A DNA stretch of 23,808 nucleotides from the NCBI GenBank assembly GCA_015660855.1, contig JACSDG010000107.1, positions 1 through 23,808 on the forward strand, written 5' to 3'. The translations under genes and the position numbers were made by a program. This document shows positions 99-19,283 of the stretch, piece after piece. Within the stretch, counting starts at the first letter, position 1; each line of letters begins with the position of its first letter. The notes under the pieces are model-generated. The model saw nothing but the letters and a program-made list of their open reading frames with translations. It was not told the DNA's origin and did not search any database. The DNA comes from Magnetococcales bacterium (GTDB lineage: Bacteria; Pseudomonadota; Magnetococcia; Magnetococcales; UBA8363).

Positions 99-833
99 TT
101 AGCCATCCATTTTTTTTTGCAAAACCATCCAGGCGAAGGTGTAGTCGCGGTCAAGAAAATGGATGACGCGCTCACTGGCATCAAAATTCAAGGTTCCCAC
201 GGGAAACAATTGGCAGGTTTGAGCCTGTCGCATAAAATGCTCCAATTCCTGACGGGAAAAAATCATCCAATCCATGCCAAACAATTCAATTCCCGTGGTG
301 TCCAACTTTTCCGGCCAATAATCGACCGAGGCCAAAAAATAACCACCGGGCCGCAACAAACGTTTGATCTCTCCCAATAAGGCTGCGGTATTCAAACCAT
401 GTTCAATCACCGAGATGGCCGTAATGGCGGCAAAAGATTCATTCGCAAAAGAGGTGTGCATAAAATTGCCCACCGCATAACGAATGCCCTCCCCCTTGGG
501 CATACGCAGCACCTCTGGATTAAGGTCCACCCCCGTCAAACAGGAAAATCCCAAACGATGCAATACCCCAATGATTTCCGAACCGTAGGCACCGATATCC
601 AAAATTGGATCTTTTTTTTCCAGATATCGCAGGATAAATTCAACACTGTTGAGCAGATCCCAACTTTTACCCCGATCACCCACAAACGGTGCCCGGGTCA
701 ACTTGAAACGTCGCGCCCAACGCAACCATTGGGGACTCAAGCAAGATAGATCTCGCGCTTTCAATACCCCATAAGCCTTTTCAACCTCCCCCTGGTTTTG
801 CAATACCAGGAGCCCTTTTATATTTTCGTTCAT
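99..833 (-). CDS. Class I SAM-dependent methyltransferase (Methyltransf_11/12-like)
   Basis: ORF track 99..869. Motif I 'LDIGAYGSE' and post-I 'LRPGGYFL' are typical of Rossmann SAM methyltransferases. The preferred start is the ATG at 833 (MNENIKG...): an AGAGGA SD sits 4 nt upstream and the ATG overlaps the upstream FkbM stop as ATGA (830-833). The alternative start at 869 has no SD. An A8 run (612-619) encodes EKK inside the gene. Confidence 0.7.
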   Translation of the reverse strand: MNENIKGLLVLQNQGEVEKAYGVLKARDLSCLSPQWLRWARRFKLTRAPFVGDRGKSWDLLNSVEFILRYLEKKDPILDIGAYGSEIIGVLHRLGFSCLTGVDLNPEVLRMPKGEGIRYAVGNFMHTSFANESFAAITAISVIEHGLNTAALLGEIKRLLRPGGYFLASVDYWPEKLDTTGIELFGMDWMIFSRQELEHFMRQAQTCQLFPVGTLNFDASERVIHFLDRDYTFAWMVLQKKMDG

Positions 834-1714
834 GGCATCCTCTGATCCGCCCCCGCCAAAGGTCGCCATTGGGGTAACAACAATACCGGCCCGATATAAA
901 AAAGATTCTCCCTGAATTCTGTATGTTCCTGGAAAAACATATCCAAGGCGCGATATTTTTTTTCCCGAAGCAGATCACCTATTTCCCGACCCGTCGTGCC
1001 AAACCTTTTCCAGGCGAAAGGGTGCATTTCGCAATAGATTTTACCATGGTGAAGCTTTTCCCAGGGCAAGCCGTGCAAAACCTGCATCTCCGCTCCCTCC
1101 ACATCAATCATGAGGAGATCGACCCGGTCGATGCCATGTTTCTCCAACAGGGTCGTCAACGTCGTGACTGTTACCGTTTCTGCATGGGAAGATGGTTTTT
1201 CGGTAAGAAAGCTTTCATTGCCGCGACCTTGGATGGATCCTTGCCCGTCATAATCGGCCACCGCCACGTTTTCGCAGATGACGGTATCTTGCAGACCGTT
1301 TAAACGAACATTTTCCTTAAGTATGGCAAATTGCCCCGCATGCGGTTCCACGGCAAGCACCTGGCCGCCTTTTTCCTGAATGATTTTTCCCAGGATCACG
1401 GCGTAGACACCGTGAAAGGCACCGACATCGACAAACACCGGCCTTCCCGGCAGGCTCAGGGCATCGCAGACCACCGCCAGGGTTTGAACATGGTCGGCAT
1501 GAGCGACGATTCCCTCCAGGAGATGTCCAGCACCGAACGCTGCCGGGTCAAACGTTTGCGAAGCCGCCGAGAAGCGGTACTCTCTGCCGAAGACACCGAC
1601 TTTTCGCCCCCCCATGAAAACCCACCAAGGTTTGACCAGACCGGTGTGCATGATGCGAAGCAGACGCCTGAAAATTCGCCCATGAAGGGATGGGATCGAG
1701 GAATTGACCATCAT
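830..1714 (-). CDS. FkbM-family methyltransferase
   Basis: 294-aa ORF with 'VFVDVGAFHGVYA' and 'LLMIDVEGAEMQVL' motifs characteristic of the FkbM methyltransferase family. The start ATG at 1714 overlaps the stop of the upstream GT as ATGA (1711-1714). An A8 tract (956-963) encodes EKK near the C-terminus. Confidence 0.7.
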   Translation of the reverse strand: MMVNSSIPSLHGRIFRRLLRIMHTGLVKPWWVFMGGRKVGVFGREYRFSAASQTFDPAAFGAGHLLEGIVAHADHVQTLAVVCDALSLPGRPVFVDVGAFHGVYAVILGKIIQEKGGQVLAVEPHAGQFAILKENVRLNGLQDTVICENVAVADYDGQGSIQGRGNESFLTEKPSSHAETVTVTTLTTLLEKHGIDRVDLLMIDVEGAEMQVLHGLPWEKLHHGKIYCEMHPFAWKRFGTTGREIGDLLREKKYRALDMFFQEHTEFRENLFYIGPVLLLPQWRPLAGADQRMP

Positions 1715-2832
1715 ACAGGGACACCGAAATCGCGCCAGAATTGAAGTAACCGGTCAAACAGCCTGGCGGGGGTAAAATGGTTCTCCCAGACACGGCGTGC
1801 CACCCGCCCTGTTTCCGGAACAGTATGGGGGTGTTGACAACAATGGATCATGGCCCGTGCCAGATCCCAGGTATCGGCACGACGGACGACCCAGCCCCCT
1901 CCCAGTTGTTCCAATACTTCACGGCTGGATCCCACATCGGTGGCAATCACCGGCCTGCCACGCGACATCAGTTCCAGCATGACCAAACCAAAACCTTCAA
2001 AAATGGAAGATAACAGCCCCACATCGATGGATTCCACCAGATCATCCATTTCCTGCCGCTGGTAGCCGCCGTGGAAAGACACACGAGCTGCCAGTCCCAG
2101 GCTGTCCACGAGTTCCCGGGCGGAACAGGCTTCGGGTCCATCGCCAAAAAAGTGCAGCTCGGCGTCATGTCCCGCCTCGATCACCTGCGCAAAGGCCCCG
2201 ATAACGAAGGGGATTCCTTTCATGGAATAAAGCCTGCCAAATTGCCCGAAACGCAGCGTGCCCTGTTGGCGTGCGGGCAGGGGCATCCGAAGCGGGGGTG
2301 CCGATGCGGGCCAAAGAGGTCGCACCGGACAGGAGAGACGATAATGGTCGGCAGCCCCAAGGGACTGACGGCGACCATGTACCGACAGACCGGAGATTCG
2401 AGCGCAAACCTGAAACCAGAGGGGGTGGTAATGAGGGGTGCGGGCTGAAGCCTCGCCCGGATCATGCACAAAAAAAGGGGGGGCATCGACAGGCATGATC
2501 GCCAGGGCGGCACAGGTCATTTGGGCGTTGTCGGGAGACCAGACGAGGGTGGGACGATGACGGCGCACAAACCACCACAGACGCCAGGCCAGCCAATAAT
2601 GGGGTGCCAGCCGACCGGTCAAAAACCAAAAGCCGGGTTGATGCACCCGTACACCGGCGTGGTCCAAAAATGTCCGCCATGCCGAGCGGCCAGGGTGATA
2701 ACACGCACTGAACAAATCCACCCGCCAACCACGCCGAACCGCCTCTTCCATCACCAGAGCAGCCAGAGTTTCCGTGCCGTGGGGAAAGTCCATCTCGTTG
2801 ATGACCATGACCATGGCGTATCGATTTTGCAT
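1711..2832 (-). CDS. Glycosyltransferase family 4 (GT-B, retaining type)
   Basis: 373-aa ORF. The C-terminal block 'EGFGLVMLELMSRGRPVIATDVGSSREVL' is the canonical GT4/GT1 E-x7-E region. The N-terminus 'MVMVINEMDFPHGTETLAALVMEEAVRRGWRV' matches the GT4 N-domain. A GGGAGA SD lies 8 nt upstream of the ATG at 2832. Confidence 0.8.
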   Translation of the reverse strand: MQNRYAMVMVINEMDFPHGTETLAALVMEEAVRRGWRVDLFSACYHPGRSAWRTFLDHAGVRVHQPGFWFLTGRLAPHYWLAWRLWWFVRRHRPTLVWSPDNAQMTCAALAIMPVDAPPFFVHDPGEASARTPHYHPLWFQVCARISGLSVHGRRQSLGAADHYRLSCPVRPLWPASAPPLRMPLPARQQGTLRFGQFGRLYSMKGIPFVIGAFAQVIEAGHDAELHFFGDGPEACSARELVDSLGLAARVSFHGGYQRQEMDDLVESIDVGLLSSIFEGFGLVMLELMSRGRPVIATDVGSSREVLEQLGGGWVVRRADTWDLARAMIHCCQHPHTVPETGRVARRVWENHFTPARLFDRLLQFWRDFGVPV

Positions 2833-2882
2833 GGCCGTTTTCTCCCACCTGTCAGTTTCAAGAGTCGGAAATCAATCCATTT

Positions 2883-4004
2883 TCAAGCAAACATCTCCGC
2901 CAATTTTTCTCCACGCTTTTCCCATGTGTGGAATTTCGACTCCCCAAAGCGCGCCGCACGCAAACCATCATCAAATTGCCGCGCTGCCAATGATACAAGG
3001 GTTTCCGTCAGTTGTACCGGGGTTCGGCACATAGTGACCCAAGGTTCAAACTCTTCGAGTTGGCGGCAACCAGGGGTCGCCAGAATGGGCTGGCCGAACG
3101 GCAGTTGACAAAACAACCGTACCGGACTGGATGCGGGGTTAATCCCTTCATTTTTGAAGGGAATCAACGCAACATCGAAAGATGCGGCAAAATCAAACAG
3201 TCTTTCATAGGGAATGTACCCTGTAAAACAGCAGCGCGGATGCGATTGAAGATAAATAAAATCGACCTGATCTTCGGGATGAATGTTTTCGACAGGCCCA
3301 ACAAAAACCCAATGGAGCCAAGGCAAAGTTTCCACCGCCTGACGCAACCAGGCAATATGCAACCGACTGGAAAAAGTTCCCAGAACCCCCGCCAAAGGCC
3401 TGAAGGTGGAAGGTACAGGTTGTGGAGAGGGTAGAGGAATGGAAGAAAACTGTTGGGGAATGGCGGCTTCCGGTACCCCATTGGGGACAATGAGAATGCG
3501 ATCCCGGGGCATGTGGTACAACATTTCAAACCGTTCCGCCAATGCTTTTGACACCACAATGACCCGTTGCACTTTTGTAACGATACGGCTTTCCCAGGTT
3601 CGGACATGATCGCTGGACCAACCATAGGCGGTGGAAAAATCATCGCTGGCGTAATAGATCGCCCAAGGGCAACGCAACCCGGACAAAATGCCCCATTGAT
3701 TGGGAAAGGTAAGGACAACCGCTCCGGGATTGGGACAAACCCGGCGGATGGCCAATCCGGTCAGCGGCGACATCCAGTGGGAGAACCGACCCAAGGCGTG
3801 GGATGGAAGAAAAATTTTGTGTTGTGACCAGCCGACCTGTGGCACCGCCTTGGGGTTAGCCAACCAGTGCCAAGCATGCAACTCTGGACCCAGTCCCATG
3901 GTTGGCATCCGTGCTCCCAAAGCTTTAAAGGGTTCACGAATCCAAACGTTTTTCGTATCCAGGACAAGAATCGGTCCAATCATGGGGGGCTTCAGTCGGA
4001 ACAT
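2883..4004 (-). CDS. Glycosyltransferase (GT-B fold, GT4-like)
   Basis: 373-aa ORF. The N-terminus 'MIGPILVLDT' and the C-terminal block 'DVALIPFKNEGINPASSPVRLFCQLPFGQPILATP' fit a GT-B nucleotide-sugar-binding domain. An AAGGG SD precedes the ATG at 4004. It is the first gene of the operon, directly downstream (same strand) of tRNA-Lys. Confidence 0.65.
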   Translation of the reverse strand: MFRLKPPMIGPILVLDTKNVWIREPFKALGARMPTMGLGPELHAWHWLANPKAVPQVGWSQHKIFLPSHALGRFSHWMSPLTGLAIRRVCPNPGAVVLTFPNQWGILSGLRCPWAIYYASDDFSTAYGWSSDHVRTWESRIVTKVQRVIVVSKALAERFEMLYHMPRDRILIVPNGVPEAAIPQQFSSIPLPSPQPVPSTFRPLAGVLGTFSSRLHIAWLRQAVETLPWLHWVFVGPVENIHPEDQVDFIYLQSHPRCCFTGYIPYERLFDFAASFDVALIPFKNEGINPASSPVRLFCQLPFGQPILATPGCRQLEEFEPWVTMCRTPVQLTETLVSLAARQFDDGLRAARFGESKFHTWEKRGEKLAEMFA

Positions 4005-4094
4005 GCCGCCCTTCGGGCAAAAACCAAAACCTTGGCGGGCTGCCGCCTCCGAAACGTGAACGTCTGGCGGGTGGGGTTAAACCCCTGTTTTTAT

Positions 4095-4170
<76 letters not shown>

Positions 4171-4239
4171 AAAAAAACCGGCAGACAATCCCGCCCGGAG
4201 CACCACGTCTCGAAACAACATCCCCGAAGATCCGGCGGC

Positions 4240-4269
4240 ATTATGTGGGGTTGATAGCTTTAAAGTCAA
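4240..4269 (-). promoter_or_regulatory. Candidate sigma70-type promoter for tRNA-Lys / downstream glycan operon
   Basis: On the minus strand TTGACT (plus 4264-4269) is followed by an 18-nt spacer and CATAAT (plus 4240-4245). The predicted TSS is ~60 nt upstream of the tRNA 5' end. This is a sequence match only. Confidence 0.3.
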
Positions 4270-4537
4270 GCATTGTCGTTTAAGCCTGATACGTTCGTGG
4301 GTTGCCCCAGAGGTCCATAATGGCATCTTCTTAGTTGGGCAAGAATTGGCCACGACAAGTTCTACAACTGGTGCGACCGCTACGGCCAGAGCCATTGCCA
4401 CAACGGTTCTACTCTAAAGGAATTCTTTGGTTGGAAGAGCGAGAAAAAGCCGCGATAATAACAATTTATCACGAATATCGAAAAGACGGCTATCGGAAAT
4501 GGCCTTTTGTCGGATTTCCGCTAAACCAGCACAAGAG

Positions 4538-5041: not shown

Positions 5042-8000
5042 TTAAAGGATTTTAGTCGGCGCAACCCCAGACTTTTTTCCCCCAAGAAAATCGAGCATCC
5101 GTTCCAAATGTTGCAGGCGCAACAGAGGATCTTCCCAGTACCGCTCACGAAAAGTAAGCAGATTTTTCTCCTGGTTAAACACCACCGAACCTCCACCCTG
5201 GCGAATCATGTCGATCAAAACGGCAGGCTGAATGTTGGGCTGGGAATGAAAGGTCAGGACGGCCCCTTTGGGACCCGCTTCCAGTTTGAGTACCTTGAGT
5301 TTGATACACCTTCGCTTGATGGCCACCACCTTCAATAAATTTTCCACCGAATCGGGCAGAGAGCCAAAACGATCGGTAAACTCCACCTTCATCTCCGCTG
5401 TTTCATCAGGCGTTTTTAATTCGGCCACCCGTTTGTACATGGTCAATCGTAAATTCATGTCGGTGATGTAAGTGTCGGGAATGTTGGTGGAAAGATTCAG
5501 ATTGATGATGGGGACAATTTCTTCCTCCTGGGGGCTGCCACCCCGATCGGCCATCGTCCCCGCACCATAAGCCTCCACCGCTTCCTTCAACATTTGGTTG
5601 TACAGTTCAAAACCTATTTCCTTGATGTGTCCCGATTGTTCTTCCCCCAACACGTTGCCTACGCCACGAATTTCCATGTCGTGGCTGGCAAGCATGAAAC
5701 CCGATCCCAACTCCCCCAAAGCTTCGATGGCCTCCAGACGTTTACGAGCATCGGCGGATTGGGCCTGAATGGGGGGGGTGAGCAGATAGGCATAAGCCCG
5801 GTGTCGCGAACGCCCCACCCGTCCGCGCAACTGGTGCAATTGGGCCAGACCAAAATGATCGGCCCGATGGATGATGATGGTATTGGCACTGGGAATGTCA
5901 ACCCCGTTCTCAATGATGGTGGTACACAGCAACAAGTTGAATTCCTGGCGATAAAAGGCCACCATGATCCGTTCAAGGCGACCAACGGGCATTTGACCGT
6001 GGGCGATGCCGATTTTGGCTTCGGGGACCAGTTCTGCGATGCGGATGGCCATGCGTTCAATTTCCTGGACCTTGTTGAACACATAAAACACCTGACCACC
6101 ACGATAAATTTCCCTGAGAATCGCCTCACGGATACGGGCGGAATTGTATTCAGTGACAAAGGTACGGATTGCCAGGCGATTGGTTGGGGGGGTGGCAATG
6201 ATGGATATGTCGCGAATGCCCGACATGGCCATATGCAAGGTGCGGGGAATGGGGGTTGCGGTCAAGGTCAGAATATCAACGTTGGCGCGCATGGCTTTAA
6301 TGCGTTCCTTGTGGCTGACACCAAAACGTTGCTCTTCATCAACTATGAGCAACCCCAAATCTTTGAAAGCGATGTCCTTTTGCAGCAGGCGATGGGTGCC
6401 GATGACAATATCCGCCTTGCCCTCACCAATTTTTTCCGCAAGTTCATCCATTTGTTTTGCGGTGCGAAACCGAGACATCATGGCGACGTTGACGGGATAG
6501 GGGGAAAACCGTCGGGAAAAAGTTTCGTAGTGTTGTTGCGCCAGAATGGTCGTGGGGGTAAGAACGGCCACCTGCTTGCCATCCATGACGCAACGAAACG
6601 CCGCACGCAAAGCCACCTCGGTCTTGCCAAACCCGACATCGCCGCAAATCAACCGGTCCATGGGACGCAACGAGGCCATGTCCGACAATACCGCTTCGAT
6701 GGCCTGGGCCTGATCGGGAGTTTCATCGTAGGGAAACGCAGTGGCAAATTCATGGTCCACGGCATGGGGACTGGAAAACCGGATTCCTTTGGCGGTTTCA
6801 CGCTTGGCTTGCACTTCGACCAGTTCCGCCGCCATTTCCAATAATTTTTTCTGGACCTTTTGGCGGGTTTTTTTCCATTTAGTCCCCCCCAGTTTGTCCA
6901 GAATCACTTCGTCAGACCCGGCGTATTTGCTGACCCGGTCCAGGTTTTCCACCGGCACGTAGAGTTTATCCGACCCGGCGTAGGTCAAAAGGAGAAAATC
7001 GTTTTGAATCCCCCCCACCGCCAAAGTATGCAATCCCCCGAAACAACCAATGCCATGGTCGGCATGAACGACAAAACTGCCCTCCTTCAAATTGCGAAAG
7101 GTGGCCAGGATACGGTCCAGGTATTGGGGATCGGTATGTTTGCGACGTGCCCTGGTTCCCAAAACGGCGTCTTCGTTGAAGACCGCCAGTCGCAGACCCG
7201 CATGGACAAAACCACTGGCCAAGTCCCCCAAAACCAATTGTATACGCTTGGAAGAAACCAACAGGGCATCCTGCCAACTTGCGGCACTTTCAGTCTTATG
7301 ACCATGATCGGCCAGCAATTCGGCCACCCGATCCCGTTGCCCCATGGAACGGGTGGAAATCACAATGCGGTGCTGCTGTTTTTGTTGCGTCTGAATAAAG
7401 TTGACAACCCGTTCCACCACGGAATGTCCCGACAGAACATCCTCGCCGGCAGGATCAAAAAAATCGGGAACGCGGTCAAATCCCAGAGAACAACCAGGTT
7501 CATCGGGATTGTCCTTGATTTGCAGTACCTGAAAATGCGCCAAAGATGCAAAAAGTTGCTGTGCCGTGATATAGAATCGGTGGACCGGCAACAGGCGCAG
7601 ATGGGACGCATCTTCTTCCTTGAGCAACAATTCCCTTTGGTTATTCACTTTTTCCTCGAAAGCGACCCCAGCCGGTTCCACATCGGCATCGAGAAGAATT
7701 TGGCTGCCTTCGGGAAGATAATCGACCAAAAGGTCGGTGGTGTCGTAGAACAGCGGCAAAAACCGCTCCATCCCCTGAAATTTTCCCCCGGTGGAAACCA
7801 CCTTGTAAATTTCATCGCTGGCCGCCTTGCCGCCAAAGGTTTCCCGGTAGAAAGTGCGAAAACAACGGATGGTCTCCTCGGTCAAAAGAACCTCGCTCAT
7901 GGGCAAGGTCTCAACCTTGGAATTTCTTTGGGTGGAACGTTGGGTTTGGATGTCAAAATGGCGGATGGTTTCCACCTGGTCGCCAAAAAGTTCCACCCGC

Positions 8001-8623
8001 ACCGGTTCTTCATAGCCGGGAGGAAACAGATCGATGATGCCACCACGCGCGGCGAATTCACCCGGTTCTTCAATCTGGGCGGAGGATCGGTAGCCGGAGG
8101 CGATTAAAAATTGTTTGAAGGCGGGAAGATCAATCTGATCCGATTCCCGGATGGCAAATCCATGTTGCGCCAAGAGATGCCGGGGCATGAGTCTTTGCAT
8201 CAGGGCCATGGGGGTCGTAATGATGATGGCTTGTTGGTATCCCGCATTATTTTCGGGGCGAACCACGCCAAATCCAAGCATTTGGGTCAGACGATACAGG
8301 GTGGCAATGCGTTCACCGACGATGGGACCATAGGGTGACAAAGGTTCAAACGGCAATATTTCCCACGCCGGAAAAGGGAGAATGGCGACGGGACGGTGTC
8401 GATCCCCCTGAAACAACAACAACTCTCGATAGATAGCCTCGGCCCGTGTGGTTTTTCCGGTGACGATGACCAGGGGGCTTGTGCGGGTCGCCGCCCACTC
8501 TTTGACAAACAAACTCAGCGTCGCCCCCGGCAAATCTTTCAGCACACCGAAAGGGTGACCAGGTGTTTTGGGCAGGGGAGCCAACAGTTTGGAAAACAGG
8601 GAAGCGAACGGGCTTGGATCCAT
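5042..8623 (-). CDS. mfd: Transcription-repair coupling factor Mfd
   Basis: 1193-aa ORF. It has an SF2 helicase core with Walker A 'GDVGFGKTEVALRAAF' and motif II 'LLIVDEEQRFGVSHKE'. The UvrB-homology N-terminus, RNA-polymerase-interacting region, TRG motif region and C-terminal D7 domain follow in the expected order. The length is typical for Mfd. Confidence 0.95.
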   Translation of the reverse strand: MDPSPFASLFSKLLAPLPKTPGHPFGVLKDLPGATLSLFVKEWAATRTSPLVIVTGKTTRAEAIYRELLLFQGDRHRPVAILPFPAWEILPFEPLSPYGPIVGERIATLYRLTQMLGFGVVRPENNAGYQQAIIITTPMALMQRLMPRHLLAQHGFAIRESDQIDLPAFKQFLIASGYRSSAQIEEPGEFAARGGIIDLFPPGYEEPVRVELFGDQVETIRHFDIQTQRSTQRNSKVETLPMSEVLLTEETIRCFRTFYRETFGGKAASDEIYKVVSTGGKFQGMERFLPLFYDTTDLLVDYLPEGSQILLDADVEPAGVAFEEKVNNQRELLLKEEDASHLRLLPVHRFYITAQQLFASLAHFQVLQIKDNPDEPGCSLGFDRVPDFFDPAGEDVLSGHSVVERVVNFIQTQQKQQHRIVISTRSMGQRDRVAELLADHGHKTESAASWQDALLVSSKRIQLVLGDLASGFVHAGLRLAVFNEDAVLGTRARRKHTDPQYLDRILATFRNLKEGSFVVHADHGIGCFGGLHTLAVGGIQNDFLLLTYAGSDKLYVPVENLDRVSKYAGSDEVILDKLGGTKWKKTRQKVQKKLLEMAAELVEVQAKRETAKGIRFSSPHAVDHEFATAFPYDETPDQAQAIEAVLSDMASLRPMDRLICGDVGFGKTEVALRAAFRCVMDGKQVAVLTPTTILAQQHYETFSRRFSPYPVNVAMMSRFRTAKQMDELAEKIGEGKADIVIGTHRLLQKDIAFKDLGLLIVDEEQRFGVSHKERIKAMRANVDILTLTATPIPRTLHMAMSGIRDISIIATPPTNRLAIRTFVTEYNSARIREAILREIYRGGQVFYVFNKVQEIERMAIRIAELVPEAKIGIAHGQMPVGRLERIMVAFYRQEFNLLLCTTIIENGVDIPSANTIIIHRADHFGLAQLHQLRGRVGRSRHRAYAYLLTPPIQAQSADARKRLEAIEALGELGSGFMLASHDMEIRGVGNVLGEEQSGHIKEIGFELYNQMLKEAVEAYGAGTMADRGGSPQEEEIVPIINLNLSTNIPDTYITDMNLRLTMYKRVAELKTPDETAEMKVEFTDRFGSLPDSVENLLKVVAIKRRCIKLKVLKLEAGPKGAVLTFHSQPNIQPAVLIDMIRQGGGSVVFNQEKNLLTFRERYWEDPLLRLQHLERMLDFLGGKKSGVAPTKIL

Positions 8624-8877
8624 AAGGCGTCAGTAACAACCACCATCGGCTTGCAGGACAGATCGATGGGGCATGGGTTAAGGTGGATTTGAGTGGGGAT
8701 GGTCGGACTGTTTAGGGCCCCTGGTCAAGGAATCATGATCAAATGACCCGCAATTATCGCCGCACCATTGGAAAAACCCTACCGGCTGACCCTGTCGGTT
8801 TGGGTTGACATGGGCGAAAAAACGTTTCAAAACTCAGCCAGATATTCAAGCTGAACAACCAACTGGAGGTCCATTCC

Positions 8878-9138
8878 ATGTCGCAAACTCAATGGTCCCT
8901 GCAAGATGCCAAAAATCGCTTCAGCCGTGTCGTTAAAGCCGCGCAGCAAGGTTACCCACAGACGGTTACCAAGCGTGGCATCCCTGCTGTCGTCGTTATC
9001 GCCACCGAAGAATACGAACGCCTGCAATGTCTCGAAAAAAGGCATCTTCCTTCGTTTATCGACCACCTCCTGGCGATACCGAAGGATGATGAGAGTTTTG
9101 AAAGCTCGATCATTCAACCTCGAAATTTAATTTTGTGA
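8878..9138 (+). CDS. Type II toxin-antitoxin system Phd/YefM-family antitoxin, apparently orphan
   Basis: 86-aa protein 'MSQTQWSLQDAKNRFSRVVKAAQQGYPQTVTKRGIPAVVVIATEEYERLQ' matches the Phd/YefM (VapB-type) antitoxin N-domain pattern (W-LQ-AK--FS-vv--A--G-PQ-vT--G-PaVVV----EYERL). A GGAGG SD lies 8 nt upstream (8865-8869). A possible -35 TTGACA is at 8805-8810. No PIN or ParE/RelE toxin ORF follows. Confidence 0.75.
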   Translation: MSQTQWSLQDAKNRFSRVVKAAQQGYPQTVTKRGIPAVVVIATEEYERLQCLEKRHLPSFIDHLLAIPKDDESFESSIIQPRNLIL

Positions 9139-10259
9139 GCCAGCGGATCCATCGCCAGATCATCGTTGTCGGCGGGGGACCGGGTGGATCCATGACGGCA
9201 TGGAAGCTGGCTTTGGCCGGATGTGAAGTCCTGCTCATCGAAGCCAAAACGTTTCCCCGCTCCAAACCCTGTGCCGGCTGGATCACCTGTGCTGCCATGC
9301 AGGCCATGGCGTTTGACGCAACCACCTATCCCCATCTTTTGGTTCCCATCACCCGTGTCGCCATTGGTCTTCACGATGGTTTGCACGTCACCCACTGGCC
9401 CAACCCGGTGAGCTACGGCATTTTGCGGCGGGAGCTGGATGATTTTCTCCTGCAACGGGCCAGGGCGGCGGGGGCGGAAATCTGGCTGGGACGGCGGGTG
9501 GATCGGGTTGAACTCGGACAGGATGATGCCCTCGTCGTTGTGGGCGCAACCCAGGTCCGTGGAAAATGGGTTGTGGGTGCCGGTGGTGCAAGCTGCCCGG
9601 TCGCACGCGCCGTGGGGGGGAAATCATTTTGGCAACACCGCACCATGGTCGCATCACAAACGAGCGAAACCCCCATAGGTATCCGCCAACTGGAAAATTC
9701 CGGGCTGGGGACCGGTCTGCCGGTGCTGTTTCCCGAACCGGAAGCAGATGGATATGCCTGGTATTTTACCAAGGGGGATCATCTAAACATTGGGGTGGGG
9801 GCGTTGGGTGGCGGACCTGCCATTCCCATGCGCCGGCAACGTTTCCTGGAACGTCTGCAACGCGCAGGCACCCTGGACCCCTCCTGGAAGCTGGCCCCGT
9901 TCATCGGCCATTCTTATGCCCTCTGGCGCGGATTGCGGCAACCGTTGGCGGGTCGCAACCATCTATTGGTGGGCGATGCCGCCGGCCTGGCACGGGATTT
10001 CAGTGGTGAAGGAATTGGACCCGCCGTCCGCAGTGGTTCCCTGGCGGCCAATTTTATCCTTTCCCAACCATCGGGCGATAGCGAAGCCAACGACCATACC
10101 CGACAATTGGCACGCCTCCAGGGCCATGGTTTGATCACAAAAATGGGGGGAATCCTGGAAAAACTGCCCCAATCCTTCCGCCGCACCCTGGTTGAAAGTC
10201 TGTGCCGATCCCCCTGGTTGCGGCGACGGTGGGTGTTGGAAAAAGCGTTCCTGGGGTAG
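9135..10259 (+). CDS. FAD-dependent oxidoreductase, geranylgeranyl reductase family
   Basis: 374-aa ORF. It has an N-terminal dinucleotide-binding fold 'IIVVGGGPGGSMTAW' and the 'KPCAGWI' motif. The geranylgeranyl-reductase-family signature 'HLLVGDAAGLARDFSGEGIGPAVRSGSLAA' is present. The GTG start at 9135 overlaps the antitoxin stop (GTGA). No earlier in-frame start can include the Rossmann motif. Confidence 0.75.
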   Translation: MSQRIHRQIIVVGGGPGGSMTAWKLALAGCEVLLIEAKTFPRSKPCAGWITCAAMQAMAFDATTYPHLLVPITRVAIGLHDGLHVTHWPNPVSYGILRRELDDFLLQRARAAGAEIWLGRRVDRVELGQDDALVVVGATQVRGKWVVGAGGASCPVARAVGGKSFWQHRTMVASQTSETPIGIRQLENSGLGTGLPVLFPEPEADGYAWYFTKGDHLNIGVGALGGGPAIPMRRQRFLERLQRAGTLDPSWKLAPFIGHSYALWRGLRQPLAGRNHLLVGDAAGLARDFSGEGIGPAVRSGSLAANFILSQPSGDSEANDHTRQLARLQGHGLITKMGGILEKLPQSFRRTLVESLCRSPWLRRRWVLEKAFLG

Positions 10260-10264
10260 GTCGG

Positions 10265-11419
10265 TCAGGCAAGATTTTCCAGGGCACTTTGGGTACGCCG
10301 AATCTGATGGAGCATTATTTTTTCACACCCGTCCCAACTTGTCTGCTCCCCCAGGCTAAAGCGTAGCCATTCGTTACGGCGCAACGAAAAATTGATGCCA
10401 CCATTGCCAAACATGCCGTGCATATGGGGATACCGTTGCAACCAGGCATGCACCCCCGGTCCCACATCGATGGCGCGACCCACGGGATAGGCCAAAAAAT
10501 GGATCAATGGAATTTTTTGTTGTTCCCAATAGTGGCTATTGTCTTCGATGGCCATGGCCACTTGGTCAGGGGTTTGATGCGAGAGGAGACGATGGGCGCG
10601 GGTATGGTTGCCGATTTCCCAGCCTGCGCGATGCAACCGCTCCACCCCATCCCGATCCAAGTGTACGTTAAGGTGGTTGGGATCTCCCAAGCATTCCCGG
10701 TAGGTTGCGTCGGTCACCTCCTCCATCACATCGGCGGCGTAATGGCCTTTCATCAGGCTTTGGAGTGCCGCCCCATCATCAGGCCAATCCTGTCCAGGCA
10801 ATTGCGCACGCAGGTTCGCCGCCAACCGCGCCGCGTATCCTTTAAGCACCAACACCCCCGCCAGAACTCGATACAAACTTTGGCGTTTCCGGGCAAACTC
10901 GGAACAGACAAAAACAGTCGGATGCAACCCCAATTGTTGAATAATGGGACCCGCCTGGGTCAGATTGTTGGTGAATCCATCATCAAAGGTCACCGCGAAA
11001 ACAGATTTCTCAAGACTCCCGTTGGCCCACAAACCTGGCAGTTCACTCAAGGCAACGGCGGGCATATGGGACAGCATAAATTTCAGTTGTTCTTGCAACT
11101 GTAAAATGGTCGTCTCCCCTTTGCGATAACCCTGTTCCCACAATTCACGCTGGTTGGGATCGACGACGCTGTGATAGAGCAGAATATAAACTCCCTTGGG
11201 AATTTTTTTTCTCACCCGTTTGACAAATATCCCAGGAAGGCACTTTCCGAGGCTTCGGGTAAGGAAAGATTGCGGCGGGGCGGGGGGAACCGGGGTTTTT
11301 TCAATGGTTTTTTGCAGATTCGGCCAATGCTCGTTCGGTGGGACGGTAGGGTGATTCATGGGGGAGGCCGGTTTTTTTTGGTCAGAGTAGACAAAATCCA
11401 GGGGATACGCCGCAACCAT
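10265..11419 (-). CDS. Polysaccharide deacetylase (NodB homology domain, carbohydrate esterase family 4)
   Basis: NodB motifs are present: 'TFDDGFTNN' (catalytic Asp and metal ligand) and 'GWEIGNHTRAH' (His ligands). The ORF-track start is 11419. An alternative ATG at 11359 (MNHPTV...) would overlap the upstream GT stop as ATGA. Neither start has a clear SD. Confidence 0.8.
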   Translation of the reverse strand: MVAAYPLDFVYSDQKKPASPMNHPTVPPNEHWPNLQKTIEKTPVPPAPPQSFLTRSLGKCLPGIFVKRVRKKIPKGVYILLYHSVVDPNQRELWEQGYRKGETTILQLQEQLKFMLSHMPAVALSELPGLWANGSLEKSVFAVTFDDGFTNNLTQAGPIIQQLGLHPTVFVCSEFARKRQSLYRVLAGVLVLKGYAARLAANLRAQLPGQDWPDDGAALQSLMKGHYAADVMEEVTDATYRECLGDPNHLNVHLDRDGVERLHRAGWEIGNHTRAHRLLSHQTPDQVAMAIEDNSHYWEQQKIPLIHFLAYPVGRAIDVGPGVHAWLQRYPHMHGMFGNGGINFSLRRNEWLRFSLGEQTSWDGCEKIMLHQIRRTQSALENLA

Positions 11420-12408
11420 CGACGCTGGGCCAAAATCCGGGGTCTCTGGGCCAGCAACTGTTGAAAAAGGTCATGGTAGTTCTGGCACATGCGTTGGGCG
11501 GTATGCGGAAAACCGACCATGCGTGCGGCCCACTGCGGGAAAGTCTGGAGCATTTCTTCCAGTTTGGCCTCCAAGGTTTCGGGGGTATATTCAATCCCAT
11601 AACCATTGCAGTATTCGACCATGGAGCCGCTGTCAAGGTAGAGCAATGGCAAACCGCACAACCCCGCCTCCAGGTTGTGGTTCCCCCCCGATTCGTGCCT
11701 GGCGGCGGTAATATAGGCATCGTGTCGGCGCAACTCCTGGGCGAGGGCCTCCCCCGAGAGCGGTTCGATAAGGCGCGCCCGTTCAAAATGAAAATCCTTA
11801 GGCACGCGACCAATATAGGTAAATTCAATCCGCTCTGCCCATTGGGGATCGGCGAGCAATCGATCCAATTGTTGGTAAACGTCAAAGCCTTTGTTCCAAT
11901 GGTTGCTCCAATGATGGGTCACCAGTTTTAATAGTTTTTCCTGTTTTTTTTGGGGGGGTTCTCCAGGTTGCCAAAGGTGATGATCGCCGCCGTTGAGGAT
12001 GACACTCCAGGGACGCAAACGATTAAAACCGGATTCCAGGTAACGATCTTTGACCCATTGACTGACGAAGACGGTGTGGTCGGCGATTTGGTTGGCGTGA
12101 ATGCGATAATGATTGAATGTTTTGGCAAGGTCGTCACGGGCTTCGCTGGTGTTGTTGATGCGGTGGACAACGATGGCGTTGGGATTTTTCAGCAGGAGAT
12201 AGAGGAGGATATCACGATGGTCATAGGCGGAGATACGCAACCGGGCATCGGGTTCGGCCAACAGAATGATATCCAAATCCCGGTCTTCCAGGTCATGGCT
12301 CACCCGTTCCCCCTGGTCTCCCAGGTATTGCGTCAAAGCCTTGCCAAACTGATTTCCCCCACCCCAAGCCCCCGATTGGAGGCTCATGCCGATGCTTATT
12401 TTTGTCAA
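11356..12408 (-). CDS. Glycosyltransferase, GT-B fold (GT4-like)
   Basis: 350-aa ORF. The N-terminus 'ISIGMSLQSGAWGGGNQFGKALTQYL' resembles the GT4 N-domain. The C-terminal block 'ESGGNHNLEAGLCGLPLLYLDSG' resembles the GT-B E-x7-E/donor-binding region. The TTG start at 12408 is preceded by a GAGGA SD and overlaps the upstream stop as TTGA. A C7A8 tract (plus 11944-11958) encodes PPQKK. Confidence 0.65.
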   Translation of the reverse strand: MTKISIGMSLQSGAWGGGNQFGKALTQYLGDQGERVSHDLEDRDLDIILLAEPDARLRISAYDHRDILLYLLLKNPNAIVVHRINNTSEARDDLAKTFNHYRIHANQIADHTVFVSQWVKDRYLESGFNRLRPWSVILNGGDHHLWQPGEPPQKKQEKLLKLVTHHWSNHWNKGFDVYQQLDRLLADPQWAERIEFTYIGRVPKDFHFERARLIEPLSGEALAQELRRHDAYITAARHESGGNHNLEAGLCGLPLLYLDSGSMVEYCNGYGIEYTPETLEAKLEEMLQTFPQWAARMVGFPHTAQRMCQNYHDLFQQLLAQRPRILAQRRWLRRIPWILSTLTKKNRPPP

Positions 12409-13361
12409 TGTTTTTCCTCACTGTTGCATGCGGCGTTGAGATTCCGCCTGATCTCATCGGAAGTGCTTTGAGAATCCAGTTCATCGACAATTTCATAAAT
12501 TCTTTCCCAATAGGGGGGCAATTCTCCCAACACCCGATCCCGTTGCAAAGGTTTATCGGAAATAGCCAAGTGCAGCGTATAGGGAAGGGTAAACATGGGA
12601 GGAAACAGTTCCTTCCTGGGCACCCCCTCCCGGGAATCGTCATCCAAAGGCAAGCAATAACTCTTAACCACATCCACCCCCCGTTGCAACGCCTCCCTGG
12701 TCTCTGGTTGATCATGAAAATGCGAGGGAACGGGGGAAAAAATAATCATTGCCTTGGAGGAATACAAACCTAGCCGTATGTTCTCATCACGGAGACTTTT
12801 CAATGTTTCATCAAGACCGGCAATGTTTTGGTGATTCAGGCCGGAGACCAGAACGATCCGGTCTGCCATATATCCCATGGTTAAATCCACCAAATCCAGA
12901 TAACCGGGACAACAATCGATGAGCACATAATCAACTCCACGATCAGCCCCTTCCGGCTTGAACGCCGCCAAATCTTCAATAAATTTTTGCGCATAAAAAC
13001 GCAACGCCCATTCTTCCAGGCTTTCGTTTGCACGTCCTTCCTTGGGGGGAACTTTGTGGGTTCTCGATTCACTGAATTTTTGAATCTGAAACTGGTTGGT
13101 TTTACCTGCCGGCAATACAAGAAAACGCCCGTTGGATCCCCATATTCCTTTGGGATCATCGGACTTCCTGTCGCGTAAAAGTTTGCTCGGGGGGTAAAAA
13201 TTAAAAGTGCCTTTTTCAAGATCCCGACTAGAATAGAATTCGGCAAGCAAATCACCGACGCCCAATTCATTCAATTTTTCATCGGGATGTTTACGCAGGT
13301 TGGGGGAATAGCTGATGCCGGGGGCATGGATATCCATATCCACCAAGTGCCGTGCGCCCAA
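12405..13361 (-). CDS. ParA/MinD-fold P-loop NTPase-like protein with degenerate Walker A (putative pseudo-ATPase)
   Basis: A strong Walker B / ParA signature 'RGVDYVLIDCCPGYLDLVDLTMGYMADRIVLVS' is present, and the 'FLVLPAG' segment corresponds to the ParA switch region. The position where the deviant Walker A 'KGGVGKT' should sit (residues ~8-20) reads 'DMDIHAPGISYSPNL', with no lysines and no GK[ST]. No Walker A is found in other frames upstream. The start is uncertain: the TTG at 13361 lies only 2 nt after a GGGAGGAG SD. Confidence 0.5.
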   Translation of the reverse strand: MGARHLVDMDIHAPGISYSPNLRKHPDEKLNELGVGDLLAEFYSSRDLEKGTFNFYPPSKLLRDRKSDDPKGIWGSNGRFLVLPAGKTNQFQIQKFSESRTHKVPPKEGRANESLEEWALRFYAQKFIEDLAAFKPEGADRGVDYVLIDCCPGYLDLVDLTMGYMADRIVLVSGLNHQNIAGLDETLKSLRDENIRLGLYSSKAMIIFSPVPSHFHDQPETREALQRGVDVVKSYCLPLDDDSREGVPRKELFPPMFTLPYTLHLAISDKPLQRDRVLGELPPYWERIYEIVDELDSQSTSDEIRRNLNAACNSEEKH

Positions 13362-13415
13362 CTCCTCCCTTGAATGAATAGAAGGTGTAAACTTTCATAT
13401 AATGACCTATTGCCT

Positions 13416-14105
13416 TCATGCCGCGCTTTTAAAGTCAACCACAACCACATTTGGGAACGGACTTTTAAACACATCCTGAATTCCCCCCATTTCTTTTGAA
13501 GAAGAATTCTGTCCCGCTGCCGCCGCAGCAATGCGTTTCTCTCTACCAGCATCGGGAAAATAATCGAGTGCCCGTGGCCCGAAGGTTAAATATTTTTCAC
13601 GTCCCACTTTGTGCCGGGAGATCAGTTCCCAATCTTCCAACTGATTCAAAATGCGCGTCAGATTGGCCGGCTTCAGGGCCAACTTTTCACCCAGATCTTT
13701 TTGTAAAACATATTTTGCCTCACCGATCTGTTCCATGATCTTGCACACATGCTCCCGGTTGAGGATTTCCTCCGGAATTTCCATGTGCCGCGCCACCACT
13801 CTGTCGTGCAGAACATTCTGAAATGCCAACCAACGGGTAGCATAGGCTTCGCTCATGCCGTTGAGTATTTTTTTCCGGGAAGCGTCCGCAGCCACACTTT
13901 CCAGGTGCAGAGACAATGTTTCCATCTCTTTAACATGGGCATGATCCCACAGGGCAATATACAGCTTCCAACGGTAGGCAAAATCCAATTTCTGGGCAAT
14001 CGATTCATCCCATCGCTCAATTTTCTTAACAGCATCTAAAATGCCGTCAAGATCGGATATTTCCGAAAGCCAAAGCGGGTCTATCGTGTCAAGGTCAATC
14101 GCCAT
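13416..14105 (-). CDS. Hypothetical protein with central winged-helix (MarR-like) DNA-binding motif
   Basis: 229-aa ORF. The segment 'YVLQKDLGEKLALKPANLTRILNQLEDWELISRHKVGREKYLTF' has the helix-turn-helix plus wing pattern of MarR/PadR-type wHTH. The flanking domains have no motif I recognise. It sits directly upstream of the ParA-like gene in the same frame, but the two are separated by several stop codons. Confidence 0.45.
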   Translation of the reverse strand: MAIDLDTIDPLWLSEISDLDGILDAVKKIERWDESIAQKLDFAYRWKLYIALWDHAHVKEMETLSLHLESVAADASRKKILNGMSEAYATRWLAFQNVLHDRVVARHMEIPEEILNREHVCKIMEQIGEAKYVLQKDLGEKLALKPANLTRILNQLEDWELISRHKVGREKYLTFGPRALDYFPDAGREKRIAAAAAGQNSSSKEMGGIQDVFKSPFPNVVVVDFKSAA

Positions 14106-14429
14106 GAAGAAAACCTTTGTAAATCATTTTACTGAAGACGCGCACACCATCATTCACAACACTTTACACCATCTTCGGTTTTCCTGCACACGCCTTCGTT
14201 ATTGCGCATATAAAAACCTCAATTAATAAAAAAACTCACAATAGATTTCCAAGCGTAGCAAAGGCATTGATCATTTTCAACACGAATCGCTCACTCACGC
14301 AAAAAAAACGGCATTAACCTTGCATTAATCATGAAGAAAATCCACGCAGACTGTTGGCCCCCATCCTGCCACCCTCGCGCCAAATTAAAAAATGAACAAC
14401 CTTCAACCCGTTCTTCCAAGGTGCCTGTC

Positions 14430-15194
14430 ATGATGGTCGATTACATCCCATGCGCTGACTCCAGTACAGTAAAAAAATGTGCCAGAAAAATTCCTTGGCT
14501 CCCCTTCCTTCTGGTTCTCGCCTGCGTTTGCCAGCCGGTCCTCGCCGAAGAAGGCATCTTCAACGATGAACGAAATTCCGGTTTCAACAATCGCTGGGTC
14601 GAACCCAATAATACCAGTGCCCATGAAATCGGTTTGTCCAAAGGTGCCGCAAAACCATCGTTCGTCCCCGCCCACCACGTCATCCATTGGCGTTGGGATA
14701 AGACTGTCTTTTCCTATTCCAACTATTCATGGGGTATGCAATGGCGCGGTTGCAACGAACCCATCGATTTCCTGTCCATCCTCTATATGGACCGGCCACC
14801 CGCAGAAATGACTTTGGAATATTATAAAAATTTTACCAGACGCGCCGAACAGGTGGCCCTCAAATTTGAACTCATCCTGGCCGATGACGATTTCTCTGGC
14901 AAAGCCATCAACGTCCGGTTTGATATGGTCGGCGACATCCCCTCCGAAGATGTCAATATTCTTGAACACCTCTACTCCCACGACCATCCCCACCCCCCCA
15001 TCACCATCTACCCCAAAGCCCCCAATCTGGGATTGGAAAAAAAACGTCCCTATGAAGTCATCATCAACTTCATCGACTTCGCATTCCTGGAGCAAGGATT
15101 GGATCTGACAAAAATGAAACAAATTGTGTTCAGCATACCCAAAGATGGACCGAAAAAAGGAGATATCTTTCTCTACAATATTCGTATCGAATAA
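14430..15194 (+). CDS. Secreted hypothetical protein (Sec signal peptide)
   Basis: The ORF track gives 14331..15194. The preferred start is the ATG at 14430 (MMVDY...), with an AAGGTG SD 6 nt upstream. The signal peptide is 'KKCARKIPWLPFLLVLACVCQPVLA|EEG'. The mature protein is hydrophilic with an 'HDHPHPP' patch and a C-terminus 'GDIFLYNIRIE'. I recognise no family. Confidence 0.5.
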   Translation: MMVDYIPCADSSTVKKCARKIPWLPFLLVLACVCQPVLAEEGIFNDERNSGFNNRWVEPNNTSAHEIGLSKGAAKPSFVPAHHVIHWRWDKTVFSYSNYSWGMQWRGCNEPIDFLSILYMDRPPAEMTLEYYKNFTRRAEQVALKFELILADDDFSGKAINVRFDMVGDIPSEDVNILEHLYSHDHPHPPITIYPKAPNLGLEKKRPYEVIINFIDFAFLEQGLDLTKMKQIVFSIPKDGPKKGDIFLYNIRIE

Positions 15195-15201
15195 TCCCCC
15201 C

Positions 15202-16218
15202 TCATGGAGGTGGATTCGTGGAATCTTTCAGTGCCCGTTTAAAATCACGATGGTAGATGAGGTAAAAAACAAAACCTGGCAGCAAAGCCATGGAGGAAAC
15301 AATGCGAAAAACCAAAAAAATGGTGCCGTAGCCCGTCACTGAAGGAATGGTCTCCAGCAGGCGGGCAATCTGATCAAAACTACCCTCGCCCACCCCAAGC
15401 CCTCCCGGCGTCACCGGCAAGGCATTGGCCGCCGTTGACCAAAGCGTCACCAATACGTAATCCGCCCCGCTGAGCGTCCCTATACCACTGGAAAAGACGA
15501 TCACAATGATACAGGCAATGGTCAGCAAATGATTCAATACTGCCAACAAAAGGACCAAAACCATCCGTTTAGGGGTCTTCTTGTAGAGATCAATCGCATG
15601 GACCAACCGGTCCAAAATCCAGCGCAACTGTGTCGAAGGGACGCTAGAAAGCAGCCACTCCCCCCATGAAGTGTGACTCCAGCGAAGAAAAACATACGCC
15701 GCCAACGGCAGTCCAAAAGTGACTCCCGTGGCAAATATCCACAATATTTTCAGAGGCACATGCTGATTGGCGGCGTCCAAATAGAAAAAAGAAAAAACAA
15801 AACAAAGCAAAAATTGTGAATAAACCCCAATCATCCGGTCGAAAAAAATGGACCACGCCGCCGCAGTGCGTTGATCCGGAGTTTCCTGGACCACATAGGC
15901 GGTACGCAGGGCGTCGGAAGTGACAAATCCGCCGGGGAGAAAAATGGAGAAAAATACCGTAATAAACAGAATCTGTACCGATTTGAACGCCGAAACCTGA
16001 ATCCCTTGGCACGAAAGCAACAAAAACCAACGCCAACCCGACAATACCATCGCCACCAAAACGATAACCACAATCTGCAATACCACCATGGGGTGCGTCA
16101 CCAGTTGCCGCAACATGACAAAATCAATCACGTCACCAAAATAGAGTGCCGCCAACAATCCCGCCGCAATAACCAGCTTAACGCCGGGCGTCATGATCCG
16201 CTCCATCGACAAATTCAC
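15202..16218 (-). CDS. Flippase-like domain membrane protein (UPF0104 / lysylphosphatidylglycerol-synthase TM-region family)
   Basis: The protein is polytopic and hydrophobic, with about 8 predicted TM helices. The family signature 'LPVTPGGLGVGEG' is present. The GTG start at 16218 has an AGGAGA SD 5 nt upstream. Confidence 0.7.
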   Translation of the reverse strand: MNLSMERIMTPGVKLVIAAGLLAALYFGDVIDFVMLRQLVTHPMVVLQIVVIVLVAMVLSGWRWFLLLSCQGIQVSAFKSVQILFITVFFSIFLPGGFVTSDALRTAYVVQETPDQRTAAAWSIFFDRMIGVYSQFLLCFVFSFFYLDAANQHVPLKILWIFATGVTFGLPLAAYVFLRWSHTSWGEWLLSSVPSTQLRWILDRLVHAIDLYKKTPKRMVLVLLLAVLNHLLTIACIIVIVFSSGIGTLSGADYVLVTLWSTAANALPVTPGGLGVGEGSFDQIARLLETIPSVTGYGTIFLVFRIVSSMALLPGFVFYLIYHRDFKRALKDSTNPPP

Positions 16219-18570: not shown

Positions 18571-19059
18571 AATTTTTTCTCCCCGTTCCCCGTCGGTTGA
18601 TGATGCCATCCCTTCTTGCAAGGACGGCATGGCTTGGCATCCTGTTGGCGTCAATCTATCATTTTCAACGGCTTCACTGCACCTTAAAAGCAGGGGCCGC
18701 TCCACCATTCTACCCGTTTTATTTGACAATTCCAGCCGGCGGCGACCCACCGTCGGTGCCCTGCCTTCATCCATATGGATTTCTACGCCATGGAGAAAAA
18801 AGTTAAAACTATACATTATTAATTACCAATGAATGCAAAAAACGTACTTGGATTCATTCATAATTTAAATTATTATTTGCAAGTCATTCTTGGTTTTATT
18901 ATTATTAAAATTGGATGGCAAGTTGTTGCCTGGGGGACTCTTTGACTTTTCTTTTTTTAAAGGGTATAGTCCCCACCCTGGCATTTCGTGGTGGATGCGA
19001 AAGGAGCTGTATGATATTATTGTGGATCAACAGGGAGATGCAACAAAGGCTGTCGTTTC

Positions 19060-19283
19060 TTCCTCATGCGGTCCGGGCCATGAAAGAAATTACCGCAAAG
19101 ATCAGCATCATCGAAGAAATTGCCCGACAGACCAACCTGTTAGCTTTGAATGCGGCCATTGAAGCCGCGCGCGCCGGCGAGAGTCATGCGTCTGCCGGGG
19201 CATTGCCTTCGCCGTCTTCCAAATCCGGTGGGGCTGACCTGGATATGGGGTCGTCTGCGGTGGATGAATTTGAATCTTTCTGA
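19060..19283 (+). pseudogene. Remnant of a methyl-accepting chemotaxis protein signalling domain (frameshifted and truncated)
   Basis: '[34 protein letters not shown]' is the highly conserved MCP hairpin-tip core. The expected following 'GRGFAVVA' appears shifted into another frame ('RGIAFAV'), then the reading frame collapses. No HAMP, sensor or TM region lies upstream. The AT-rich tract 18800-18960 flanks it. Confidence 0.55.

Follow-up and report, generated by a model that had tools for sequence, protein, structure and literature searches.

The locus described here lies on a contig (JACSDG010000107.1) of the metagenome-assembled genome of an uncultured magnetotactic bacterium of the Magnetococcales and was analysed within a stretch of 23,808 nucleotides (nt), which is called the window in the following. 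It consists of two genes in the same orientation: phd, encoding an antitoxin of 86 amino acids (aa), and a gene for a 374-aa oxidoreductase that depends on flavin adenine dinucleotide (FAD) and is assigned to the geranylgeranyl reductase (GGR) family. The phd gene ends with ...ATT TTG TGA, and the GTG start codon of the flavoprotein gene (9135-9137) overlaps the TGA (9136-9138). The resulting GTGA at 9135-9138 is a stop/start overlap of the kind by which coupled gene pairs are recognized. The positions of both genes and of the features discussed below are compiled in Table 1.

Table 1. Features of the phd-flavoprotein locus and its surroundings (positions refer to the window)
Feature	Position	Strand	Basis
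mfd (transcription-repair coupling factor), divergent neighbour	5042..8623	-	1193-aa open reading frame (ORF), Mfd Pfam domain set
Element conserved upstream of mfd, mfd side and not cassette	8696..8740	.	Match to L101
Block homologous to phd-vapC cassettes (promoter, operator-like region, Shine-Dalgarno sequence, phd, vapC start)	8797..9140	+	DNA alignments with L003, L005, L006
-35 hexamer TTGACA, cassette promoter	8805..8810	+	Aligns with -35 of promoters called in L003, L005, L006
Degenerate -10 position CAAAAC	8828..8833	+	Aligns with CAGAAT, TAGTAT, TAATAT of homologues
Operator-like conserved block TCAGCCAGATATTCAAGCTGAACA, between -10 position and Shine-Dalgarno sequence	8834..8857	+	Conserved across cassettes
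Shine-Dalgarno sequence GGAGG of phd, 8 nt 5' of ATG	8865..8869	+	Sequence reading
phd, intact Phd/YefM-family antitoxin gene, 86 aa, ATG start	8878..9138	+	PF02604, TIGR01552
AT-rich phd 3' end, 30% GC, without the GAGG Shine-Dalgarno sequence of vapC	9105..9134	+	Comparison with homologues
GTGAGC, ancestral vapC initiation site, now flavoprotein codons 1-2 (V, S)	9135..9140	+	Cassette alignment
GGR-family FAD-dependent oxidoreductase, 374 aa, GTG start; GxGxxG at 9171-9188	9135..10259	+	TIGR02032
Polysaccharide deacetylase, convergent with the GGR gene	10265-11419	-	Pfam
Glycosyltransferase-like gene beside the deacetylase	11356-12408	-	Pfam

Its profile matches place the 86-aa protein, whose length agrees with the approximately 80-90 aa usual in the family, among the Phd/YefM antitoxins. 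It matched PF02604 with 49.9 bits (E 2.8e-13, cut-off 29.8) and TIGR01552 with 54 bits (E 7.7e-15, cut-off 20.8); the closest solved chain is 2odk. Searches yielded 609 homologues, the nearest of which is 72% identical, and comparisons within the family were made with 120 listed members, i.e., the window Phd and 119 homologues. Residues 6-49, in the N-terminal dimerisation and DNA-binding domain, and residues 57-75 scored as typical, and the latter segment (PSFxDHLLAxPxDDxxFE), the central toxin-binding part, resembles that of homologues paired with VapC. The remaining residues 76-86 are atypical, ranking second in this respect among the 120 members, and the arginine found at position 76 in 91% of the homologues is replaced by serine (R76S).

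Geranylgeranyl reductases are marked by an N-terminal FAD-binding GxGxxG, a conserved cysteine at the catalytic site and an aromatic YxWxF motif. The 374-aa protein aligned with the GGR-family profile TIGR02032 over its full length (residues 9-308 to profile positions 3-297 of 297), the score of 151.1 bits lying slightly under the curated cut-off of 158.8. It shares the full-length match with the archaeal GGR and digeranylgeranylglycerophospholipid reductase (3atq/4opc and 3oz2, which are also its nearest solved structures), with ChlP/BchP and with MenJ. The hallmarks of the family are present as GxGxxG, the invariant cysteine of FPRxKxCAGW, GYAWYF and GDAAG, and among the orthologues GGGPGG, FPRSKPCAGW including this cysteine, GYAWYF and GDAAG are invariant.

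In the reading frame of the flavoprotein, a TGA occupies 9099-9101 and is not followed by any ATG, GTG or TTG before 9135. No canonical start other than the GTG at 9135 therefore keeps the FAD-binding GGGPGG (residues G13-G18), and a GxGxxG is present in all orthologues. The claim of the first-pass annotation that this start is not an artefact of gene calling can thus be upheld. At NCBI, ENA and Logan alike, the gene has been called from ATG 9192 onwards, as a 355-aa protein, which means that the public annotation starts 19 codons late and drops the FAD-binding motif. Two homologues, P0124 and P0128, seem to be truncated at the N-terminus in the same way. The N-terminus of the window protein is the shortest among the orthologues, the others being 4-11 residues longer.

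Attempts to find a cognate toxin were made on both strands. Pfam searches detected no toxin family among the nine overlapping, antisense or upstream ORFs in 8396-9455, nor among the other small ORFs of the window, and neither strand yielded a PIN, ParE/RelE, Doc or other toxin. By tblastn with two cognate-type VapC proteins, no vapC remnant was found in the entire 23.8 kb. The sole match below E = 0.1 (E 0.004) lies in frame inside mfd and was rejected as a chance hit. Lacking a cognate toxin, the locus is the remnant of a toxin-antitoxin module and not a module. The first-pass annotation had described an intact 86-aa Phd/YefM gene with a good Shine-Dalgarno sequence, no toxin after it and a GTGA overlap with a 374-aa GGR-family flavoprotein gene; the profile scores, the ORFs and the toxin searches, including the search for toxin remnants that it had proposed, agree with this description.

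The homologues of the window Phd are usually encoded in a different context. In 10 of the 11 homologous loci for which DNA was available, a complete PIN-domain vapC directly follows phd. A metagenome scan for closer relatives of Phd retrieved eight loci (47-62% identity), all of them with vapC, and found no strain-level variant of the window that keeps vapC. The exception among the 11 loci is an orphan Phd of Magnetococcus sp. YQC-3 (P0033; L006/L007 4001-4261), which belongs to the same subfamily, is 63% identical to the window Phd and has likewise lost its toxin by deletion. Unlike in the window, a vapC stump of 34 codons ending in a stop was left there (L006/L007 4001-4400), and the next gene, encoding a caspase-like Peptidase_C14, lies 130 nt downstream without overlap. 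The YQC-3 orphan indicates that loss of vapC recurs in this Phd subfamily and within the Magnetococcales.

Phd/YefM-VapC (PIN) cassettes such as L003 3257-3951 and L005 4001-4665 (Magnetococcales GCA_015231215) served as reference systems. The window resembles them in its promoter layout, in its Shine-Dalgarno sequence, in the 86-aa Phd (63-69% identical) and in the GTGA overlap formed with GTG AGC. All three of the closest cassettes (L003, L005, L006) have this overlap of the phd stop with the next start; they read GTGAGC followed by TAT CTG, and their VapC begins with V-S-Y-L-L-D-T. DNA homology between the window and the cassettes starts at approximately 8797, near GGTTT..TTGAC, proceeds with a mean column identity of 76% and stops after GTGAGC. 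Past this hexamer the window has CAG CGG ATC where the cassettes have TAT CTG CTT, and similarity is gone. As GC is all that the window has in common with vapC 3' of the phd stop, the breakpoint can be placed at 9138-9141. In contrast to the reference cassettes, the window has thus kept only codons 1-2 of vapC and carries the 374-aa flavoenzyme in the slot of the toxin.

The flavoprotein gene was also followed in related genomes. Its five Magnetococcales orthologues are 59-69% identical to the window protein, and all five loci share the genes downstream, i.e., that of a convergent polysaccharide deacetylase and that of a glycosyltransferase-like protein (about 347 aa); this order, from the GGR gene over the convergent deacetylase to the ~347-aa gene, is found, e.g., in L008, L009, L010 and L012. 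The genes upstream of the five orthologues all differ, and phd is at none of them. Extending the comparison to 85 loci of GGR homologues with 3-kb flanks, of which 80 came from an alignment-based contig scan (a contig scan with a single GGR protein gave none), we did not detect a phd of this subfamily at any locus by tblastn with the 120 Phd proteins. In the light of this genomic context, the flavoprotein gene is a resident of a conserved glycan cluster and not a partner of Phd. Unlike the genes of known GGRs, it does not stand beside chlorophyll, quinone or archaeal lipid genes, but beside genes for a polysaccharide deacetylase and a glycosyltransferase. Its setting suggests a lipid-linked glycan pathway, and the conservation of the GGR-deacetylase-glycosyltransferase core across Magnetococcales hints at the reduction of a polyprenyl carrier lipid.

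From these data we conclude that the locus is, very probably, what remained of a phd-vapC type II cassette after deletion of the toxin gene, by which the GGR frame was joined to the start of vapC. An ancestral phd-vapC cassette would have been situated upstream of the GGR gene of the envelope-glycan cluster. A deletion reaching from the third codon of vapC to the 5'-end of the GGR gene, and including the DNA between them, would then have left the reading frame of GGR beginning at the codon that once initiated vapC and that overlaps the phd stop. The first-pass annotation had offered replacement of a toxin by an unrelated enzyme as one of two explanations. This idea is supported by the PIN/VapC genes that follow the nearest Phds with the same GTGA, by the end of homology at GTGAGC and by the absence of phd from other GGR loci; the event is best described, though, as a deletion of vapC fusing the GGR gene to the vapC start, and not as insertion of an enzyme gene. 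As to how the ends were joined, slippage from the GTGAGC at which vapC began to an ATGAGC at the original beginning of the GGR gene may be considered. The orthologue P0127 starts with M-S-Q-R (ATG AGT CAA CGA) and the window protein with V-S-Q-R, so that the native GGR start may have been ATGAGC. We put this detail forward with some reserve, at a little less than even chances, because the closer orthologues begin differently.

Several points weigh against the proposed origin. The M-S-Q-R match comes from the most distant orthologue, the closer ones beginning otherwise. Past the phd stop just two nucleotides (GC) are shared with vapC, which would occur by chance in about 1 of 16 cases. No close genome was found in which vapC still resides at this site, the nearest Phd being 72% identical, and since no orthologous phd-vapC pair was found, the ancestral state had to be deduced from paralogous cassettes and not from the orthologous locus. 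The comparison of related genomes suggested by the first-pass annotation did not reveal a Phd-VapC/ParE pair at this site either: phd is absent from the 85 GGR loci and from the surroundings of the closest Mfd relatives (76-82% identical, the range of identity between the window Mfd and Magnetococcales Mfd proteins), which have a PCMT, Fic/LysR or hypothetical gene upstream of mfd and neither phd nor GGR. By this comparison, the junction between mfd and phd-GGR is a lineage-specific synteny break. Finally, the -10 position is degenerate and neither a consensus promoter nor a terminator was detected, so that the cassette promoter is not certain to drive transcription.

On the last point, the -35 box of the window is perfect, but promoter scans made calls at the corresponding position of L003, L005 and L006 and none in the window; a scan of 8500-10500 of the window for promoters and terminators returned no matches. 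Between the -10 position and the Shine-Dalgarno sequence, more distant cassettes contain a perfect palindrome, CCTAGCCAGT-TAG-ACTGGCTAGG, at the place of the operator-like block, and the arrangement of half-sites varies between sub-groups of the cassettes. The block of the window is a putative operator, to which Phd may bind. The opposite side of the intergenic region belongs to mfd. In the closest relative, L101, the DNA immediately preceding mfd (3850-3894) contains a counterpart of the element at 8696-8740 (75% over 45 nt, E 0.003), so that the left boundary of the cassette falls somewhere from 8740 to 8797. The view that the locus lies in a promoter region shared with mfd therefore has to be abandoned, as the cassette has brought its own promoter and the mfd-side element is separate. 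In L101 (Magnetococcales DCbin4), a 279-aa Fic-domain gene (2632-3471) diverges from mfd, with a gap of 450 nt in front of mfd.

The 3'-end of phd has also changed. The GC content of the stretch 9105-9134 is 0.30, compared with 0.51 in the remaining phd and 0.47-0.73 in the equivalent stretch of the 11 homologous loci. In L003, L005 and L006, a GAGG is located 7 nt 5' of the vapC GTG, where the window carries GAAATTTAATTTT; the absence of this internal Shine-Dalgarno sequence and the diverged Phd tail distinguish the window from the reference cassettes. In the minimum-free-energy fold of the junction RNA, nucleotides 9120-9136 are unpaired. Loss of the Shine-Dalgarno sequence, the AT-rich phd end, the altered Phd tail and decay of the -10 position would be in keeping with a relaxation of constraint, both for toxin binding and for the translation signals of vapC. 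The same changes would fit an adaptation of the phd 3'-end to re-initiation independent of a Shine-Dalgarno sequence, and the data cannot separate the two.

At present, phd and the GGR gene are probably expressed as one transcript from the cassette promoter. Termination-reinitiation is a known mechanism for overlaps of 4 nt, and ribosomes terminating phd at the UGA would re-initiate at the overlapping GUG to translate GGR. As the GGR gene has no Shine-Dalgarno sequence of its own, its translation would depend on this re-initiation after phd. Phd probably still binds the cassette operator; deprived of its toxin as co-repressor, it would be a weak autoregulator at most.

Other explanations were weighed beside that of a cassette remnant, and the first two, a domesticated Phd and a Phd acting in trans, agree with the proposed origin. 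Phd may have been domesticated, i.e., selected as a stress-labile repressor and translational gate of the GGR gene and thereby of the glycan cluster. In favour of such a function, the phd gene is intact and its DNA-binding domain typical of the family, the operator-like block is mostly kept, the GGR gene has neither a Shine-Dalgarno sequence nor a promoter of its own, so that its expression depends on the phd unit, and the AT-rich phd tail could be the adaptation to re-initiation mentioned above. However, the arrangement occurs in one lineage only, the -10 box has decayed along with some of the symmetry of the operator, and an intact ORF is equally expected of a recent relic (the deletion is undatable) or if merely the translation of phd is needed. 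The proposal of the first-pass annotation that the antitoxin was retained for transcriptional regulation has no advantage over a relic of recent date, or over a gene preserved only for the promoter and the translation on which GGR has come to depend. We regard domestication as unlikely.

A further possibility is that the orphan Phd works in trans and would neutralise VapC paralogues, whether these are encoded elsewhere in the genome or arrive on mobile elements (cross-neutralisation or anti-addiction). Such a role has been proposed for orphan antitoxins (PMC7354431); the VapC-type segment 57-75 of Phd and the occurrence of close paralogous phd-vapC cassettes in Magnetococcales agree with it. 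Given the highly atypical extreme C-terminus including R76S, and no vapC within the 23.8-kb window, this function appears distinctly unlikely to us. Quite improbable, in our estimation, is a more elaborate co-option of the relic, in which the protease-labile Phd would serve both as a stress-responsive repressor and as the obligatory translational leader of a polyprenyl-reductase-like enzyme of the envelope glycan, the AT-rich 3'-end of its gene, devoid of a Shine-Dalgarno sequence, having been moulded by selection to allow re-initiation or, in a more exotic version, a -1 frameshift fusion.

A programmed -1 frameshift would take place at the heptamer A_AAT_TTA in the phd frame (9123-9129) and would yield a Phd(1-84)-GGR fusion. 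The heptamer fits the slippery-site pattern X_XXY_YYZ, the GGR frame is open from 9102, and in the minimum-free-energy fold a stem begins 7 nt 3' of the heptamer. Nevertheless, the fold of 9095-9235 is no stabler than those of shuffled sequences (z = 0.18), and the heptamer, being part of an AT-rich run in which sequences of this type readily form, is probably due to chance. There is also no precedent for a fusion, as none of the 120 listed Phd proteins exceeds 110 aa, and we give frameshifting very little credence. The second explanation of the first-pass annotation, a non-canonical toxin-antitoxin-like pair in which the flavoprotein would be a toxic or regulated partner of Phd, fares no better. 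Nothing but the operon-like layout with its 4-nt overlap speaks for such a pair, while phd is missing from all 85 GGR loci, the orthologues of the flavoprotein gene stand alone in the conserved glycan cluster, homology to the cassettes stops exactly at the vapC start, and the Phd C-terminus resembles that of VapC-binding homologues save for its drifting tail; a pairing of this kind is thus highly improbable and was dismissed. That the junction is an assembly chimera of a toxin-antitoxin cassette and an unrelated locus, as a metagenome assembly and a position at a synteny break might suggest, has a negligible probability, because the NCBI contig, an ENA assembly (L001, 99.99% identical to the window over 10.5 kb) and a Logan assembly (L002, run SRR7072777, 100% over 3.1 kb) have the same junction, which cannot then be the product of one assembler, and because the enzyme has remained full-length and in frame across the fusion.

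The wider surroundings of the GGR gene (99-4004 and 10265-16218) form an envelope-glycan neighbourhood with genes for two methyltransferases, GT4 glycosyltransferases, the deacetylase, the glycosyltransferase-like protein, a ParA-like protein, a MarR protein and an LPG_synthase_TM protein. The flavoprotein and deacetylase genes converge with 5 nt between their stop codons (10259-10265) and without a terminator-like hairpin; in the relatives L010 (8102-8149) and L012 (1174-1214), the two convergent genes overlap by 40-48 nt. At 13344/13345 the window lacks approximately 50 nt that are present in the ENA assembly (L001, 10469-10517). The gap interrupts the region encoding the N-terminus of a ParA/CbiA-like ATPase (354 aa in L001, a 318-aa ORF at 12405..13361 in the window) and reflects either a mistake in the assembly or variation within the population. 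An Rfam search of the window returned one tRNA and nothing else. The gene for tRNA-Lys(CTT) (4095-4170, minus strand) is situated within a 155-aa ORF on the same strand (3934..4401), for which a 153-aa protein without Pfam match has been called publicly; the protein call is probably spurious. A 122-aa ORF at 18915-19283 on the plus strand contains only a fragment of an MCP signalling domain (profile positions 17-66 of 172) and is possibly a truncated chemoreceptor pseudogene.

Solitary type II antitoxins from decayed modules have been catalogued in Klebsiella, Acinetobacter, Bartonella and marine metagenome-assembled genomes, in the last of which YefM-type orphans are among the most prevalent (PMC7354431, PMC12654330). 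Many of these orphans are regarded as canonical modules in decay, antitoxins paired with proteins other than toxins have been noted, and roles in regulation or anti-addiction have been proposed (PMC7354431, PMC12654330). With its intact antitoxin gene and no cognate toxin, the window locus is similar to the catalogued cases, and it introduces no new principle, since the existing catalogues of orphan antitoxins, and of antitoxins paired with non-toxins, are extensive. It differs from them in the precision with which the breakpoint can be placed (2-3 nt) and in the takeover of the toxin's initiation codon and coupling by the downstream gene, and these two features are what is particular to it. 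The cassette remnant of this Magnetococcales bacterium would thus provide a clean snapshot of toxin-antitoxin decay, in which the toxin was removed and the antitoxin retained, and in which a neighbouring housekeeping gene would have inherited both the start codon and the translational coupling of the toxin, and probably the promoter of the cassette as well. This may be one route by which antitoxins turn into orphans and possibly drift into ordinary gene regulation.

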